Origin: Planctomycetota bacterium
GTDB taxonomy: Bacteria > Planctomycetota > PLA2 > JAEUHO01
Assembly (NCBI GenBank): GCA_965223505.1
Contig: CBDCWP010000008.1
Location: forward strand, 1 to 64,000
DNA length: 64,000 nucleotides
Reading direction: 5' to 3'
Shown here piece after piece: positions 34,401-40,400 of this stretch. Every line of letters begins with the position of its first letter. Positions within the stretch are counted from its first letter, which is position 1. A program made the position numbers.

Positions 34401-37400
34401 AGCGCGGCGCCGGCCGCCGAGAGCGCGGCGGGCATGCGGTCGAGTCCGAAGCCGCGCAGGCTCTTGACCTCGAAGTGCTCCTTGAGCACGCGCGTCGCGG
34501 ATTCCTTGTCGAGCGTCCAGTCGGGCACGGGCGTGACCGCGCAGCGCGTGTTGGCCACGATCTCGTCGCCGAGCTCCGACTCAGCGGCGGACTCCGGCAA
34601 GAGGATCTCGGACGGCGCGATGCGCGCGATCTCGTCGAACAGGGCGCCCTTCGGCGGCTCGGCAACGAGGAAGCGTCCGGTGGACAGGTCCACCCATGCC
34701 AAACCGATCTTGTTGCGGCGTTCCTTCTTCGCGGCCGGCCGCACCGCCAACAGGAAGTTGCTTTGGCGCGGCTCGAGCACCTCGTCCTCGGTGATGGTGC
34801 CGGGCGTCAGCACGCGCACGACCTCGCGCTCGACCAACCCCTTGCTCAGCTTGGGGTCGCTCATCTGCTCGCAAACGGCGACCTTGTGCCCCTGGGTGAG
34901 CAGCCGCTGCAAGTAGCCGTTCGCCGCCTTCACCGGCACGCCGGCCATCGGGATCTTGCGCTCCTTGTCACGCGCCGTGAGCGTCAGTCCGAGCGCCTCC
35001 GATGCGAGCTTCGCGTCGTCGTAGAACATCTCGTAGAAGTCGCCCATGCGGAAGAAGACCAGCGCGTCGGGATACCGGCGCTTCGCCTCCGCGTACTGGG
35101 CCATGGCAGGGGTTTCGGCAACCACGCAGCAACTCCTCGAACCGCCTCCGGTGGGGGCGCAAACCTAGCATCGAGCGACGACCTTCTGCGGATACACAGC
35201 GCTTCGAAATCGGGTCCCGGTGCGCCGGTTGTGCAGAACGTTGTGGAAGGTCGGGGGAAACGTGTGGAGAAGTCGCTCGGCCCCTACTTGGGCTTCGTCG
35301 GCGGCGTCTGGAAGTAGTAGGTCTGCCCGCCGACGGGCACGCCCTCGACGGGCTTCGTCGCTTCGGCGTCGTGAAACGCGTTCGTGAACGCCACAGGCAC
35401 CGACCGAATGCGGCCCCACTTGTCGATGCGATACGCCATGAAGTTGAGGTGGGGTTCCGAGCTGCGCCCGCTGTTGCCGACGCGCGCGATCGTCTGGCCG
35501 GCCTTCACGCGGATGCCGCGGCGCACTTCCTTTCCGCCGCTCTTCTGACGAATGTGCACGTACGCGGTGTAGAGGCCGTTGTCGTGCTTGATCACGACGC
35601 GGTTGTTGTAGCACTCCGTCATCGCGCCGCGGAAGCCGGGGTTGTCCGGCTCGTGATCGCACACGTGATGAACGACGCCGTCGGCCACCGCCCGGATCGT
35701 GCGGTTCCACGCGAAGTACGACTCGTTGTTGTGTGGATCGCCCTTGTGTGTGAGGCCGTTCTGCGTGACGACCATGTCGTATGCGTACCGCAGCTGCGGC
35801 TCCGCGTAGTGCGGGTGCATCGACGTTTGCCCGGGACCGTTGCCGAGTTGCCAGCCGCCGAGCACCGGGCTCTCGACGAGCTCCGGTTCGGCCGGCTCCA
35901 CCATCCAGCTTTGCACGAACTTCGCGGGTGCGCCGTCGACCTCGGCTTCGGACTCGATACGCAGGTACCCGGACGCGAAGCTCTCGTACACGTCGATGCG
36001 CCGCACGAACGGCCAGAGCGCGACGAGGTCGCCTTGCGCGTCCAAGCCTTCCCACTCCGTCGGATCGGACGAGCCCGCGTCGTCGCCGATGAAGACGCGC
36101 GTCTTCACGTTCTCCGGTCGTGCGCCGGTGAGCACCTGATGCTGGCCAACGAGGAGGATGGACCGCTGGCCGTCGGAGAACGGAACGACCTCGAGCGGCG
36201 CGACGATGCCGACGCCGTACGGGTAGGGAACCGCGTACGCGCCCGGCGTCTCGAACTCGTCGCGCACGATCGGAACCGTGATCTCTTGATGCGCGTTGTC
36301 GTGACGCACGGCCAGCAGCGCGTGGGTCGCCGGCGTGAGCGTTCGGAAGTCCCACGAGCCGAGCGCCTTCTCGCCCCCGGCGGGAAACTCCCAGGTTCCC
36401 TTCAGGAAGCTGCCATCGAGCGACTTGGGCTCTTGGGGTGCGAGCCAGCCGCCCTCGTGCACGACCAGGAGGTTTGCCGACGAGATGTGGGCGGGCGCGT
36501 CGGAGGGGTTCTTCACCTTCAACGTGAGCTCGACGCTCTGCTCGCCGAGCGGCGCGAGCGACTTCATCTTCGCCGTGGCCGTGATCTTCAGGGGGCTGGG
36601 GTCGTCCGCGGCTGCGGGCAGCGCCGCGACGGCGAGGAGCGAGGCAAGCAGAAGTGTGCGCATGGGACGGTGGGTGACCATAGCCCTCTCCGAGAGTCTA
36701 TGCGGCAAGACGGCCGCCATTGTGAACGCAGGCAACCCCGACGCGGCGGGGGAGGTATCCTGCCGGGCCATGACCGGCGAATCCTCAGAAGCGCTCAGCC
36801 CGTTGCCGCCGCCCTCGCCGCCCGAGGGAGCGGGGGATCAGCAGGCCTTGCTGCGCGCGCTGCCGCCCGTGAACGACGTCGTGGACGGCTTGTCCGAGGA
36901 GCAGCTGGCCTTCGCGCCGCGCGAGGAGTGGGTCGAGGAGATCCGGCAGTCGCTCGCGGAGCAGCGGGCCAAGATCCTGTCCGGCGAGGTCGGTCCGGTG
37001 GTGCTCTCGAAGACCGGCAACGCCGACGCCGTGCGCGCCACGGCCCGCCGCCGCATCGAGCGCCGCCGCGATCCGGGCTGCGTGCGGGTGATCAACGCGA
37101 GCGGCGTCGTGCTGCACACCAACCTGGGCCGGGCGGCGATGCCCGACGCGGCCTTCGAAGCGATCCAGGAGCATGCGCGCGGCTATCAGCTGCTCGCCGC
37201 CGATCGCGCGTCCGGCGAGCGCGCCCACCGCGAGCGCCACGTCGAAAAGCTGTTCCAGCAGCTGACGGGTTGCGAGGCCGCCACGGTGGTGAACAACAAC
37301 GCCGCGGCGACGATGGTGGCGCTGGGCGCGCTGGCCCGCGATCGTGAGGTGATCGTCGCGCGCGGGCAGCTCGTCGAGATCGGCGGCGCGTACCGGATCC

Positions 37401-40400
37401 CCGACGTGATGCGCGAGTCGGGCGCGACGCTCGTCGAGGTCGGCACGACCAACCGCGTGCACCTGCGCGACTACGAGAACGCGATCGGCGAGAAGACCGC
37501 AGCGTTGATGCGCGTGCACACGTCCAACTACCGCGTCGAGGGCTTCTCGAGCGAGGTGTCGCTCGAGGACATGGTCGCGCTCGGCCGGTCCTACGGCGTG
37601 AAGGTCGTCGACGATCTGGGCAGCGGCGCGTTGGTTCCGTTGGCGGCGCACGGGGTGCCCGGTGACGAGCCGTTGATCCGTCGCTCCATCGCGGAGGGCG
37701 CCGACCTCATCACCGCGTCCGGGGACAAGCTGATCGGCGGACCGCAGATGGGCATCATGGTCGGCACGCGCGAGTGCGTTGCGCGCGTGCGCGCGCATCC
37801 GCTGTACCGGGCGATTCGCTGTGACAAGCTCACGCTGATCGCGATGGAAGCGGTGCTGCGTTTGTTCCTGAACCCCGACGAGCTGGCGAAGGTGCATCCT
37901 ACGTTCGCGATGCTCACGGCCAAGCAGGACGATCTCTTGTCGCGCGCGCAGGCGCTCGCGAAGCGTTTCGCGTCGTTGGCGCCGGTGGCCGGGGGGCGGG
38001 TGACGGCGAGCGCGTCCGAGGCGAGCGACGCGGTCGGCGCCGGATCGCTGCCGACGGTTTCGTTGCCCGGCGCGGCCGTCGTGTTGCAGTCGGACGAAGT
38101 CGAAGCGGGCGAGCTCGCGCGGCGCCTGCGAGCCTCGACCCCGCCGGTGTTCACGACCGTTCACGATCAGCGCGTGCACGTGCACGTGCGCACCCTGCGC
38201 CCGGGCGACGACGACGACATCGCGCGCGCGATCGAAAACGCATTCGAGTGAAACCGAACCGAGCGGCCCACCGTCGCTCGGGAGGACATCATGAGTGAAA
38301 CCACCGAAACCGTTCGCCTGACCCAGTACGCCGGCGCCGGCGGGTGAGCCGCCAAAGTCGACAAGGCCACCTTGGAGGCCTTGCTGGCGCCCGTGCGGCT
38401 GCCGCCTCACCCCGACGTGCTGGTCGGCTCGTCCACCGCGGACGACGCCGGGGTCGTGAGGATCTCGGACGACCTCGCGCTCGTGCAGACGATCGACTTC
38501 TTCCCGCCGATGGTCGACGACCCCACCTGGTTCGGGAGGGTCGGCGCCGCCAACAGCCTGTCCGACATCTACGCGATGGGGGCCAAGCCGGTCTCGGCCG
38601 TGTGCGTGTACGGACTTCCGCCGAACCTGCCGGACTGGGTCCCCGCCGCGATCCTGAACGGCGCGGTCGAGACGATGACCGAGGCGAACACGCCGTTGGT
38701 CGGCGGGCACACGGTCAAGGACCACGAGATCAAGTTCGGTCTGTGCGTCACGGGCACGGTGCATCCGGACAAGATCATCACGAACGCGGGCGCCCGGGTC
38801 GGCGACGCGCTCGTGCTGACGAAGCCGCTCGGCAGTGGCTACCTGTGCACGGCCATCAAGGGCGGCGTGCTGCCCGAGGCCGAGACGCAGCGGGTGATGG
38901 AGGTGATGGCAACGCTCAACCACGGCGCGGGCAACGCGATGGTGGCCGTCGGCGTGAACGCCGGCACCGACATCACGGGCTTCGGCGTCGTCGGCCATGC
39001 GCACGGGATCGCCGACGCGTCGGGCGTGACGCTGCGTCTGCGAGCCGCCGACGTGCCGTGGATCGAGGGACTCGAGCCGTACATCTCGCCCGACAACACG
39101 TGCGGCGGGCTCAAGCGCAACCGCGAGTACTCCGAGCGCAACGTCGCCTGGAAGGGCGGCACGGACGTGCAGCAGTCTGTGCTGTGCGATCCCCAGACGA
39201 GCGGCGGGATGCTGATCAGCGTGTCACGCGACAAGCTCGATGCGTTGCTCTCGGCGCTCGAGTCGAACGGGGTCGAGACACGCGCCGTCATCGGCGACGT
39301 CATCGAGCGCACCGACGTCAGCGTCGAGGTCGTCTGAGGAGCAGCGCGCCGAGCGCGAGCAGCAGTCCGACGCCGCACCAAAGCCATACCGACCCGTCGC
39401 TCGCATCGCCGGTCTCGGCCGCGACGGCCTCGTCTTCGGTTTCGCGCGGCGGTTCGATGCGGCCGGCGTTTCGTTCGTCCAGGTTCGACGCAGGAGACGG
39501 CTTCGCCTCGGCGCGACGCTTCTCCGCTTCCTTTCGGCGCAGCTCGGCCTCCGCCTCGGCGTCGGCGCGCGCCGTTCGAATGGCGGCGCGGTACTTGTCG
39601 ATGTCCTTGATCGGACGATCCGAGATGCGCTCGATGGTCGACAGGATGCGCTCCGCTTCGTCGAACCGTTCGAGCTCGACGGCGACCGACATTCCCACGA
39701 GCAACCCGCCGACGATCGTCGGGTCACCGGCTGCTTTCGCGACGAGATCCCGGTGATCGAGCGCGAGCAAGTACATCTCCAGCGCGAGTTCGTTGCGCCC
39801 ACACATGTGCGCGCTCGATCCGAACGAGAGGAGCAGTTCTCCACTGTGGTAGTTGTCGTGGAGAGATCGCAGAAAGCCACGCATGTCGGCCTCGAACTCT
39901 TCGCCCGGCCACGTGCCGAAGAGCGTCGCCGAGCCGTCGGGTGCGACCAGGCCGTGCTTCGCGAACAGCCGCCACTTCCCCCGCCTGGCCGTCATGAGGT
40001 CGACGGTCGTCAATTCCAGCGACCGGTCCGCGCTTCGAACCGCGGCCTCGCGGTCGTCGGCCTTGTAGTACGCGCGCGCCGCGTCCATCCACGCGTCGGC
40101 TTCGGCGACGAGCCCCCTGTATCGACTCTCTTCGGCGAACCGCTCGAGGGTCTCGGCCGACGCTTGGAGTCTTCCGTTCGCCGCGTGGAGCTTGGCCGTG
40201 ACCGGCAGGAAGTGGCGACGGACGTGGTCACGGAAGAGACGCCAGCGTTCCGCCTCGGAGACATCCAGGTCGGTGGGTTCGCGCGCATCCATCCACGGAC
40301 GTAGCTGTTCCAGGGTCTCCTCGGTTGCGCTCGTCATGCCCTCGTTGATCTGAACGCGCGCAAGCTGCATGAGCACATAGCCGATCGTCACGTCGCCACG

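Follow-up and report, generated by a model that had tools for sequence, protein, structure and literature searches.

The large selenoprotein sets of Thermodesulfobacteriota include selenocysteine (Sec) forms of formate dehydrogenase, hydrogenase, heterodisulfide reductase and glycine reductase. Reports on such sets give 39 selenoprotein genes for Syntrophobacter fumaroxidans, 46 for Desulfosediminicola flagellatus and 57-63 for the Olavius algarvensis Delta-1 symbiont (PMC5029168, PMC12013277, PMC13188914, PMC13326102). Among planctomycetes, Kim 2016 (PMC4807772) lists ~15 candidates over the two genomes of the Porphyra-associated P1 and P2, where selenoprotein genes were annotated as two split genes.

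We analysed a planctomycete genome assembly (44 contigs, written C and a number; 92.5% complete, 1.66% contamination), including a 64,000-nucleotide stretch of contig CBDCWP010000008.1 (C8), hereafter the window, which carries selA and selD. Across the whole genome we count 40 selenoprotein genes with good support, which together hold 44 in-frame UGA codons, and two further genes that are probable, and the observation of a large selenoproteome is confirmed. About 40 mostly exported selenoproteins are unusual, because sets this large are known mainly from strict anaerobes. The genome resembles those of Thermodesulfobacteriota in its bacterial Sec machinery, in recoding by UGA plus a hairpin, and in its tens of genes, many of them for thiol oxidoreductases. 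Unlike the anaerobic Thermodesulfobacteriota, it encodes haem-copper oxidases (six COX1 matches, the best with 497 bits on C10), none of the six molybdopterin-oxidoreductase matches found in the genome search holds an in-frame stop, and 34 of the 40 products are predicted to be exported or anchored. No Sec formate dehydrogenase was found; this and the aerobic respiration genes, both claimed in a preliminary description of this DNA, are supported. Where Thermodesulfobacteriota have glycine reductase, GRDB gave no match here in a genome search run without a positive control. P1 and P2 share with this genome the phylum, a complete selA/selB/selD set and thioredoxin-like candidates; in its accessible text, the P1/P2 report differs in listing Sec-FdhA and FmdB and several candidates without a predicted SECIS, and in that it neither stresses export nor lists a Sec-OxyR (PMC4807772).

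The selA-selD locus and the Sec machinery

In the window, selA (L-seryl-tRNA(Sec) selenium transferase; 36770..38251, forward strand) was identified from the ORF listing and a TIGR00474 profile match of 507.2 bits (cut-off 267.9) covering profile positions 1-454 of 455. Its frame is open from 36335, the ATG at 36770 being residue 146 of that frame, and it ends with a TGA stop (38249-38251). After 39 bases and in the same frame follows selD (selenide water dikinase; 38291..39337, forward strand), with an ATG at 38291, a stop at 39335-39337, and matches of 344.1 bits to TIGR00476 (cut-off 125) and 299.2 bits to NF002098. selD itself holds an in-frame UGA (Sec19; 38345..38347, forward strand) in the motif GAGGUAAK of the glycine-rich active-site loop, and the family alignment covers this residue (residues 22-327 of a translation from 38252 with TGA read as U). 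On inspection of the sequence, the purine-rich GGGAGGA at 38280..38286 (forward strand), 4 bases 5' of the selD ATG, is likely the ribosome-binding site. RNAfold, run on the 60 nt that follow the UGA, gave a candidate SECIS at 38362..38383 (forward strand), a hairpin starting 14 nt 3' of the UGA with a 7-bp stem (CAAGGCC/GGCCUUG) and an 8-nt loop, ACCUUGGA. The remaining machinery is located elsewhere in the genome, with selB at C41:46214-48112 on the reverse strand (TIGR00475, 336 bits, cut-off 242) and tRNA-Sec with anticodon UCA at C43:10939-11037. Both this arrangement and the selA-selD pair at 36770-39337, with Sec in SelD, agree with what had been described before.

Selenoprotein genes and families

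The count of 40 comes from an independent scan of all six frames and from family scans, combined with a test for hairpins and with comparisons to relatives. It agrees with the at least 33 genes claimed earlier, was reached independently of the earlier candidate list, and includes three late additions to that list (C30:299683-300456, the DUF3179 gene on C12 and OxyR on C33), all recovered by the scan. From the 107 scan candidates, 44 were picked by eye from their translations and run against NCBIfam, yielding a match spanning the U for 21.

Most of the 40 proteins have a thioredoxin fold with U at the attacking Cys, in the motifs UxxC, UxxU, CxU and TUxPF. NCBIfam already names ~9 of the families as (seleno)proteins: Trx7/PDZ, VPGUxxT, WAxxUGC, YciW-related, AhpD-related CFYUT, UxxU metal-binding, TsoB, SelW/T/H and deiodinase-related. 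Trx7/PDZ (NF041199) is matched at C21:459093 (380 bits, cut-off 300, in a later scan) and C7:129105 (320 bits, in the genome search) and VPGUxxT type 2 (NF041383) at C34:130208 (284 bits, cut-off 275); these copies are plain family members that show no difference from the families, and one copy among them has two Sec residues (UEPU). NCBIfam matches spanning U were also obtained for two deiodinase-related proteins (211 and 198 bits), MsrA (128 bits), a YciW-related protein (127 bits), SelW/T/H (64 bits, cut-off 34) and a partial OxyR sequence (215 bits), and further matches concern AhpC-TSA (46 bits, later scan) and, in Pfam, DUF3179 (155 bits) and FG-GAP_3 (64 bits). Several Pfam and NCBIfam cases stay below curated cut-offs, among them Thioredoxin_7 (24-26 bits against 27) and ArsC (40 against 106). 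Structure models of two families lacking a sequence-family match suggest thioredoxin folds. An exported protein at C39:7798, matched by neither Pfam nor NCBIfam, carries GCUG in the context FTGCUGDGFGP, 37 residues before its end. GCUG is the redox centre of mammalian thioredoxin reductase; the tetrapeptide is shared, with the difference that here it is internal instead of C-terminal in a flavoenzyme.

Distribution and novelty

MutS places the genome among Planctomycetota, with support that is not strong. In this phylum selA was found in 221 of 301 sampled genomes and the exported Trx7/PDZ in 41 of 121, with TGA in 35 of its 53 matches, spread over many families; within the order, 30 of 38 Trx7/PDZ matches hold one or two TGA. 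The Sec trait is common to the order, and several families extend across much of the phylum. Of the earlier proposal of a novel selenoprotein-rich lineage, the large set stands, and the claim on the lineage becomes narrower. One could go further and regard the selenoproteome as real, yet as a general planctomycete feature that is already contained in models and databases, so that the present account would be a re-description. The distribution above, the ~9 families with NCBIfam names, the ~15 candidates of Kim 2016 (PMC4807772) and the 57,630 entries from 16,621 species in BSepDB (PMC13326102) all favour this. Against it, the string "Planctomycet" is absent from the main text of Peng 2016, deep-Sep 2025, the 2026 review and BSepDB, and we found no paper pairing selenoproteome with Planctomycetota. 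The accessible portion of the 2026 review still places the largest selenoprotein sets in Thermodesulfobacteriota, Synergistota and Clostridia, has no OxyR, LysR, WD40 or FG-GAP entry in its family list, and mentions neither signal peptides nor the periplasm. The best 120 database homologues of the GCTU family, moreover, all start after the UGA and are truncated "hypothetical proteins". Their late starts are also in keeping with the earlier statement that the gene caller split or cut every such gene. We consider the re-description view possible but rather unlikely. As far as we could find, Sec-OxyR, WD40 UGPU, FG-GAP UC and the GCTU and AGUC thioredoxin-fold families are new items, none of which we found in print.

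Export and proposed function

A signal peptide, lipobox or membrane anchor at the start was predicted for 34 of the 40 genes with permissive start choice, under which the loose heuristic is positive for 51% of control ORFs (30% under strict choice). With the stricter start-codon choice, 24 of 36 genes have an export signal, against 724 of 2417 control ORFs, in line with the earlier reading of a mainly extracytoplasmic set. Since most genes have the signal peptide 5' and the folded domain 3' of the UGA, neither half would work alone. The six cytoplasmic proteins are SelD, SelW-like, AhpD-like, YciW-like, ArsC/Spx-like and OxyR. A large, mainly extracytoplasmic selenoproteome built on thioredoxin-fold proteins is thus supported.

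From sequence evidence, we think it probable that a working Sec system reads ~44 UGA codons in ~40 genes, mostly exported, for extracytoplasmic selenol/thiol redox chemistry. SelA, SelB, Sec-containing SelD and tRNA-Sec would together decode these codons, SelB binding a hairpin 14-34 nt past each UGA whose apical loop is usually GGUC or GUU; at the E. coli fdhF SECIS, SelB binds a hairpin. The families and signal peptides point to a periplasmic redox network, in which electrons would cross the membrane via DsbD, with WUATC in its periplasmic gamma domain, and may pass to ResA/TlpA-like, Trx7/DsbH-like, Trx7/PDZ, VPGUxxT-MsrA and exported MsrA proteins that would repair or reduce oxidised envelope proteins, while Sec HMA domains would handle metals. 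The DsbD candidate is a membrane protein whose C-terminal part is a thioredoxin domain (NF001419, 55 bits; TsoB, 79 bits; last 237 residues only). Together with eight exported ResA/TlpA-like redoxins it recalls the DsbD to ResA/TlpA/CcmG pathway, with the difference that the gamma domain of DsbD and the putative client redoxins alike have Sec in place of the attacking Cys of CxxC.

OxyR is a full-length LysR-type regulator (209 bits against 7l4s, 164 bits against E. coli 1i6a) that shares with the E. coli and Corynebacterium glutamicum proteins (1i6a, 6g1b, 7l4s) the LLLEDGH-x-LRDQA motif and a second Cys nine residues on, and differs from them in having UGA as the codon at the peroxide-sensing Cys position. 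The same column is UGA in the genomes G000, G025, G023 and G019, where it was checked, and Cys in seven; the genomes G229 and G244, from another family, have one TGA in OxyR by count only. Because the Cys199 position is Sec and the Cys208 position is kept, a selenenyl-sulfide switch between the two is predicted. Among the papers listed by a literature search, none on a naturally occurring Sec-OxyR was found.

Alternatively, the exported selenoproteins might serve mainly metal and metalloid (Hg, Cu, As, Se) handling or cytochrome c maturation instead of envelope antioxidant defence and repair, as suggested by the Sec HMA domains (C33:26138, C25:5367), the ArsC/Spx-like and ResA/CcmG-like proteins, a protein at C21:434354 that has a cytochrome c motif and two UGA, and modelled GCTU structures whose neighbours include 3f9u, an exported cytochrome c biogenesis-related protein. 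Exported MsrA, VPGUxxT-MsrA, AhpC/TSA-like and deiodinase/peroxiredoxin-like proteins and Sec-OxyR point instead to peroxide and methionine-sulfoxide chemistry, and we judge a mainly metal or cytochrome function unlikely, at about one chance in four; the two functions are compatible with each other.

Controls for UGA recoding

As a control for chance, an in-frame stop passed only where its reading frame ranked first among the six both before and after it. For TGA, 114 cases passed and 19 of them read UxxC, against 3 of 210 xxC for TAG and 0 of 30 for TAA. Most passers lacking a redox motif are ordinary stops between same-frame genes, pseudogenes or assembly errors, one example being the selA stop at 38249 followed by in-frame selD. 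The assembly holds at least one likely frameshift error, a tandem TGA (UU) in a PP-loop motif at C21:116951, and C32:43569 lies in a glycine-rich protein resembling a phage tape-measure protein. Such cases and the 210 comparable TAG passers might suggest that many TGA are ordinary stops between same-frame genes, pseudogenes or assembly errors and that the true count is well below 33. This is very improbable, since the 40 genes have either one domain or family alignment across the UGA or a column kept or replaced by Cys in other genera at 33-74% identity, the signal peptide and folded domain of most genes lie on opposite sides of the UGA, and the hairpin is ~8-fold enriched over controls.

In aligned relatives the UGA is found in the same column or replaced by Cys, as claimed before, with the exceptions of UDSC, C5:43516 and C44:177292. 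The column is kept in 6/6 relatives for GCTU, 3/3 for UPFC, 3/3 for FG-GAP UC and 2/2 for GCUG (C39:7798), and both U in 2/2 for WD40 UGPU; AGUC has it in 5/8, the remaining three being shifted to GC-U, and USGC and FCU show Sec/Cys pairs among relatives. UDSC has U in only 3/6 homologues, the others having S or K and no partner Cys. For C5:43516 and C44:177292, the first five relatives yielded either no match or a weak one without Sec; one TGA is present in 7/7 and 16/17 of their matches, with the column checked in 3 and 4, respectively.

The hairpin pattern called for a stem of 5 bp or longer, GU in the first three loop bases, and G 14-34 nt past the UGA. It was found in 23 of 36 tested final genes compared with 129 of 1513 Cys codons (16/24 family-backed candidates and 10/14 without a family; Fisher tests against Cys codons, 7e-12 and 2e-8), 7 of 69 other scan passers and 47 of 660 ordinary TGA stops. 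In this test, the SelD hairpin lacks the GU-in-loop pattern, and six of the 36 genes have no such hairpin even with a 4-bp stem (SelD, C7:88282, C11:7404, C43:78912, C43:73840, C39:7798). Mean folding energy over the 60 nt past the UGA did not differ from controls (-19.8 against -20.6 kcal/mol), and an Rfam search of 20 candidate loci gave no match. Genome-wide reassignment of UGA to Trp, Gly or Cys, which would also keep frames open on TGA read-through, is extremely improbable, as 660 of 1689 long high-GC3 ORFs terminate in TGA, in-frame UGA occurs almost only at redox Cys positions followed by the specific hairpin, and tRNA-Sec, SelA, SelB and SelD are present. After the OxyR UGA comes a hairpin with a stem of 7 bp and the loop GGUC.

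Selenoprotein set and Sec-decoding machinery

Genomic evidence gives a well-supported set of 40 selenoprotein genes with 44 UGA codons in this genome, which bears out the at least 33 genes claimed in the preliminary description. Every counted gene sits on a contig of normal GC content, none of these being C13, C29 or C32. Positions are written contig:position (C1 to C44 being the contigs of this genome and C8 that of the window) and refer, for genes on the reverse strand, to the T of the TGA; U stands for selenocysteine (Sec), and families lacking annotation are named by their motif. 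The 44 contigs of the assembly total 5.15 Mb, at 67.4% GC, 92.5% completeness and 1.66% contamination.

In the window, selA was located at 36770-38251 on the forward strand (TIGR00474, 507 bits, cut-off 268) with its TGA stop at 38249, followed on the same strand by selD at 38291-39337 (TIGR00476, 344 bits when read through, cut-off 125), which carries an in-frame TGA at 38345 (forward strand) in the motif GAGGUAAK. Because these scores and the in-frame TGA were found where the preliminary description had placed a selA-selD pair with a Sec-containing SelD, both its coordinates and its reading of SelD were correct. The stop of selA and the start of selD are separated by 39 bases in the same frame, with a GGGAGGA stretch preceding selD, and a 7-bp hairpin lies at 38362-38383 (forward strand), 14 nt 3' of the selD UGA. 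Elsewhere in the genome we located selB at C41:46214-48112 on the reverse strand (TIGR00475, 336 bits, cut-off 242; SelA, SelB and SelD thus all score above their family cut-offs) and, using ARAGORN, a single copy of tRNA-SeC of 99 nt with anticodon UCA (tca) at C43:10939-11037. TGA is still an ordinary stop, ending 660 of 1,689 long ORFs with high third-position GC; the commonest stop of long ORFs genome-wide is TAG (933, next to 660 TGA and 96 TAA).

Genome-wide scan and family assignment

We trained a codon log-odds table on these 1,689 ORFs and used it to score, in each of the six frames, the 30 codons before and the 30 codons after each in-frame TGA; a TGA was retained only when no other frame outscored its own on either side. 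A total of 114 TGA passed, including 19 in UxxC motifs, and the same rule applied to the control stops passed 210 TAG with 3 xxC and 30 TAA with none. The motif-bearing TGA hits stood in classic thioredoxin contexts, e.g. VLLIEFASWUAGC, and the TAG hits did not. Most of the passers that had no motif were two genes sharing one frame, such as the selA stop followed by selD. From 107 first-round candidates, we picked 44 by eye from their translations for comparison with NCBIfam; most of the other 63, which stayed outside the family scan, were by eye same-frame gene pairs, such as the selA stop and selD, guaB/guaA, a response regulator and a histidine kinase, or a sigma and an anti-sigma factor.

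An NCBIfam match spanned the U in 21 of the 44 scanned candidates. Matches of this kind were obtained for SelD; for eight ResA/TlpA-like redoxins; for Trx7/PDZ (C7:129105, 320 bits, NF041199 cut-off 300) and two weak Trx7-like proteins; for the gamma domain of DsbD (C11:7404; NF001419, 55 bits with only the last 237 residues scanned, cut-off 330; TsoB-like, 79 bits) and an HMA metal-binding protein (C33:26138); for two EF-hand and deiodinase-related proteins (C7:88282 and C24:62874; 211 and 198 bits); for MsrA (C21:441465, 128 bits), a peroxidase-related AhpD-like protein (C24:87432, 106 bits) and a YciW-related protein (C33:38822, 127 bits); for VPGUxxT type 2 (the VPGUxxT-MsrA gene at C34:130208; NF041383, 284.1 bits on the first 215 residues, cut-off 275, motif EVPGUSTC) and SelW/T/H (the SelW-like gene at C41:109975, 64 bits), both above cut-off; and for an ArsC/Spx-like protein (C44:189035, 40 bits) and OxyR (C33:14465). 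A Pfam search of 21 proteins added DUF3179 (C12:91640, 155 bits) and FG-GAP_3 (the FG-GAP UC protein at C44:246138, 64 bits). In the final tally the ResA/TlpA-like group has eight members (C5:23891, C10:185965, C34:163976, C39:143159, C43:78912, C44:181841, C44:177292 and C7:1546/1555). The Trx7/DsbH-like group has five members, C21:354008, C21:278388, the tandem pair C30:73464 and C30:72520 (Pfam Thioredoxin_7 slightly below cut-off) and C5:43516; weak DsbH-like Pfam matches were obtained for C5:43516 and for C31:81108. Several family scores fall below the curated cut-offs and are therefore insufficient by themselves.

Hairpin-aided and multi-UGA scans added five further genes. The exported AhpC/TSA-like protein at C7:1546/1555 has the motif UDTU (46 bits), and C44:177292 has WGSUVGC. 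The AGUC family, otherwise represented by C30:300375 and C30:301379, gains a third paralogue of GCU type in C34:241238. An exported WD40 propeller at C30:182958/182967 has the motif GUGPU, and the second Trx7/PDZ protein, C21:459093/459084, carries UEPU (379.9 bits, NF041199 cut-off 300; Pfam Thioredoxin_7 49.7 and PDZ_6 56.2 bits). The counted set is completed by GCTU (C43:73840), UPFC (C44:227969), GCUG (C39:7798), the HMA-like USGC protein (C25:5367), UDSC (C38:23616), FCU (C44:232837) and a protein with a cytochrome c motif (C21:434354/433793). The latter is a single exported protein on the reverse strand with a CxxCH haem-binding motif, in which two UGA codons (…TETS-U-TGT… and …MRYG-U-GG…) lie 187 codons apart, each followed by a 7-8-bp hairpin. 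The scan is blind to Sec near either protein end and to genes with a weak codon signal, and OxyR was found only from the coordinate in the preliminary description, so the true gene number may be higher.

SECIS-like hairpins

Plain folding energy of the 60 nt past the UGA did not separate candidates from controls in this genome of 67% GC, so we turned to a pattern test. The predicted structures share a stem-loop with GGUC, GGU or GUU in the apical loop, about 20-30 nt past the UGA. The pattern was defined as a stem of at least 5 bp and a loop of 3-8 nt in which GU begins within the first three bases, the loop G lying 14-34 nt after the UGA. It was present in 16 of 24 family-backed and 10 of 14 no-family candidates. 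The corresponding figures were 7 of 69 for the other scan passers, 47 of 660 for ordinary TGA stops and 129 of 1,513 for in-frame Cys codons (Fisher test against Cys codons, 7e-12 for the family-backed and 2e-8 for the no-family candidates). With the minimum stem set to 4, 5 or 6 bp, it occurred respectively in 30, 23 and 16 of 36 of the final genes and in 284, 129 and 53 of the 1,513 Cys codons. Six of these 36 (SelD, C7:88282, C11:7404, C43:78912, C43:73840 and C39:7798) had no pattern hairpin even with a 4-bp stem, and a search of 20 candidate loci against Rfam gave no match at E-values up to 1. A SECIS-like hairpin directly 3' of the Sec UGA, as expected of a bacterial Sec-decoding system, is thus present for 23 of the 36 genes, and its recurrent GGUC loop offers a simple handle for re-annotation.

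Conservation of the UGA in relatives

The order (labelled PLA2 in the preliminary description) is represented by 40 searchable genomes in two families. In alignments of homologues, the residue opposite each U was recorded, and both conservation of the UGA and Sec/Cys exchange were seen. The U was retained in 6/6 relatives for GCTU, 3/3 for UPFC, 2/2 for GCUG and 3/3 for FG-GAP UC; in 5/8 for AGUC, with the order GC-U in 3/8; and in 3/6 for UDSC, the rest having S or K. Both U of the WD40 UGPU protein were kept in 2/2 relatives at 33-35% identity, and the first U of the cytochrome-c-motif protein (C21:434354) in its one relative (G019, another planctomycete genome). The HMA-like USGC protein had Cys in its one relative. 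Trx7/PDZ was found in 28 of the 40 genomes, with one or two TGA in 30 of 38 matches, and a single TGA was present in 16 of 17 matches of C44:177292 (column read in 4) and in 7 of 7 matches of C5:43516 (column read in 3). In the first five relatives, C5:43516 had a single weak match that has E at the aligned position, and C44:232837 (FCU) had none; the order-wide searches found UGA-keeping homologues for both, FCU having U in genome G008 and Cys in G017 and in a paralogue within the window's own genome. C31:81108, whose lone weak match in relatives has T under the U, and C41:14259 (CGPGGUG) are probable selenoprotein genes outside the count.

The GCTU and AGUC families

Among 5.8 billion proteins, GCTU had 472 homologues at E-values up to 1e-10. 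The best 120 of these lack any Pfam domain and cover only 58-73% of the query, and the named entries among them are each a "hypothetical protein" from Planctomycetota or Phycisphaerae. Six of the seven entries inspected begin downstream of the U, the seventh being the window genome's own truncated gene call; a full-length Cys form is therefore absent among the best 120 of the 472, and because of this GCTU appears to be obligately Sec, as far as sequences indicate. An AlphaFold model (7-sequence alignment, pLDDT 69) predicts a thioredoxin fold in which helix 1 begins with C-T-U, and the model matched 12 PDB structures at E-values up to 1e-3, including those of DsbH-like proteins, ERp19 and DsbD-gamma. 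The AGUC model (pLDDT 68) suggests a thioredoxin-like core leading into a long coiled coil, with G-U-C on a disordered tail just past the point where the signal peptide is predicted to be cleaved; matches in the PDB were weak, the best being thioredoxin 2lst (E 5.9e-3).

A candidate selenocysteine OxyR

OxyR scored 215 bits against NF008361 (cut-off 329) with only residues 51-298 scanned, and the full-length protein scored 209 bits against the solved OxyR 7l4s. In an alignment with the solved OxyR of C. glutamicum (6g1b), the U falls on the Cys of LLLDDGHCLHDQ. Both the peroxidatic Cys199 and the resolving Cys208 positions are present, the first occupied by Sec instead of Cys and the second keeping its Cys nine residues on, and a 7-bp hairpin whose loop reads GGUC lies 3' of the UGA. 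The U was read in the window's own genome (G000) and in three other planctomycete genomes (G025, G023 and G019) at 61-66% identity, and Cys in 7 others. At E-values up to 1e-55, orthologues occurred in 31 of 251 genomes (32 matches), 5 of them with a TGA, three in the family of the window's genome, where the column was read, and two (G229 and G244) in another. No description of a natural Sec-OxyR was found among the titles and abstracts listed on OxyR with selenocysteine or selenoprotein, and the words OxyR, LysR and "transcriptional regulator" are absent from the part consulted of a 2026 review (PMC13188914). A natural Sec-OxyR would offer a direct test of what selenium contributes to a peroxide sensor.

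Export and respiration

Large bacterial selenoproteomes have been tied to anaerobic life, and Planctomycetota are mostly aerobic heterotrophs. Export was called with a hydropathy and cleavage-site heuristic on the read-through genes, a loose measure to which 1,236 of 2,417 control ORFs were also positive. It was positive for 36 of 42 candidates, i.e. 34 of the final 40 (85%), the six negatives being SelD, OxyR and the AhpD-like, YciW-like, SelW-like and ArsC/Spx-like proteins. With a single start region taken from the onset of the coding signal, 24 of 36 candidates were positive against 724 of 2,417 controls (odds ratio 4.7, p = 9e-6). Together, the loose and strict counts reproduce in substance the 28 of 36 candidates with a signal reported in the preliminary description, whose further statements on respiration also stand: six COX1 (haem-copper oxidase) matches were found, the best at 497 bits on C10 and one on the lower-GC contig C13, and none of the six molybdopterin-oxidoreductase domains in the genome contains a stop, in agreement with the claimed lack of a Sec formate dehydrogenase. 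GRDB had no match in the genome, in a search that matched no control genome either. Forty genes, 85% of them exported, alongside haem-copper oxidases and without the classical Sec enzymes of anaerobes, would show large-scale use of selenium under oxygen, recruited to envelope redox chemistry.

Distribution in Planctomycetota and published selenoproteomes

The MutS gene of the window (868 aa, 32519-35125, reverse strand, upstream of selA) has its best matches in planctomycete MAGs at 49-53% identity, and in a FastTree phylogeny its five nearest rows are all Planctomycetota, on branches that have no strong support. Of 301 phylum genomes sampled, 221 have selA, 219 of them above cut-off, and Trx7/PDZ was found in 41 of 121 sampled phylum genomes of at least 90% completeness, with a TGA in 35 of 53 matches from many families. 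Use of Sec thus characterizes the phylum. The large exported set extends at least over the order, which the preliminary description had proposed as a selenoprotein-rich lineage, a claim of lineage novelty that phylum-wide Sec use makes narrower.

In the text consulted of Peng 2016 (PMC5029168), selenoprotein-rich means at least six genes, a number that the 40 found here exceed; the rich phyla are Deltaproteobacteria, Clostridia and Synergistetes, and 78.3% of rich organisms are anaerobes. As given in the main texts, the record is 46 genes in deep-Sep (PMC12013277), the 2026 review (PMC13188914) lists 57 genes together with a 63-gene Methylomirabilota MAG credited to Deng et al. and regards Thermodesulfobacteriota, Synergistota and Clostridia as the most selenoprotein-rich groups, and the top ten of BSepDB (PMC13326102), with 46-63 genes, include no planctomycete. 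The string "Planctomycet" is absent from the main text of all four, whose supplements or database downloads may list these genomes. Kim 2016 (PMC4807772) gives, in the part consulted, about 15 candidates over two planctomycetes.

We hold with about even confidence a joint reading in which the envelope redox chemistry of Planctomycetota is largely run on selenium, which would make them a fourth selenoprotein-rich lineage and the first that respires oxygen. The Sec-bearing DsbD would be the electron inlet, and dozens of exported Sec proteins of thioredoxin fold would make up the envelope network. GCTU, AGUC, the WD40 propeller UGPU, FG-GAP UC and the internal GCUG would represent selenoprotein families annotated in no database, AGUC presenting its Sec on a flexible N-terminal tail just past the cleaved signal peptide, and the cell would sense peroxide through a selenol-based OxyR. 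As gene callers appear to cut or split every one of these genes, public planctomycete proteomes are probably systematically wrong at such loci, with 472 homologues that appear truncated in the GCTU family alone.

Uncounted candidates and additional observations

Three candidates with Sec adjacent to the C terminus (C20:25704, C40:182804 and C44:155369) and the tiny ORF C7:129368 were left uncounted because a chance hairpin is expected after 3-7% of the more than about 660 TGA stops. In both C7:129368 (reverse strand, MRWMLSLAMLAVMAAILTGC-U-NGGTCG, directly upstream of the Trx7/PDZ gene) and C44:155369 (forward strand, …LSPGLAWG-U-G), a tiny ORF encodes a signal or lipoprotein peptide terminating at the UGA, and a 6-bp hairpin whose loop is of GGUC type comes next; these ORFs may represent exported seleno-peptides or have arisen by chance. 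Two further cases were also uncounted. C44:234035/234029 (reverse strand) is a GspG-like pseudopilin (weak T2SSG match, 20 bits) whose motif PP-U-G-U sits between the N-terminal hydrophobic helix and the globular part and is followed by a 7-bp hairpin. C41:695 (forward strand) and C40:169668 (reverse strand) are a paralogous pair with no family match whose TGA occupies the same position in both (YVVYDVT-U-LGAV.GVSVWDR) and is accompanied by a 5-6-bp hairpin.

We rejected C32:43569 (GACGPGGU), which is located on a lower-GC contig within a glycine-rich protein resembling phage tape-measure proteins. The adjacent TGAs (UU) at C21:116951/116948 (reverse strand), in a MnmA-looking PP-loop sequence (VGMSGG…SS, SGGxDS), are probably a frameshift or assembly error and not Sec. 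A loose scan returned an identical ORF segment, …FSQSLRNELFPRQV-TGA-YCAPLSVKISSGAP…, in six copies (C44:305944, C39:313554, C26:110665, C44:276547, C26:128206 and C10:93475), presumably a repeated mobile element.

Three contigs are of lower GC content than the genome (67.4%), namely C13 (267 kb, 61.3%), C29 (63.5%) and C32 (64.5%), and could be islands, plasmid or mis-binned DNA; a cluster of cytochrome oxidase genes (COX1, 463 bits) lies on C13. The window also contains a tRNA-Val (TAC) at 24541-24617 on the reverse strand and a tRNA-Met (CAT) at 25992-26066 on the forward strand.
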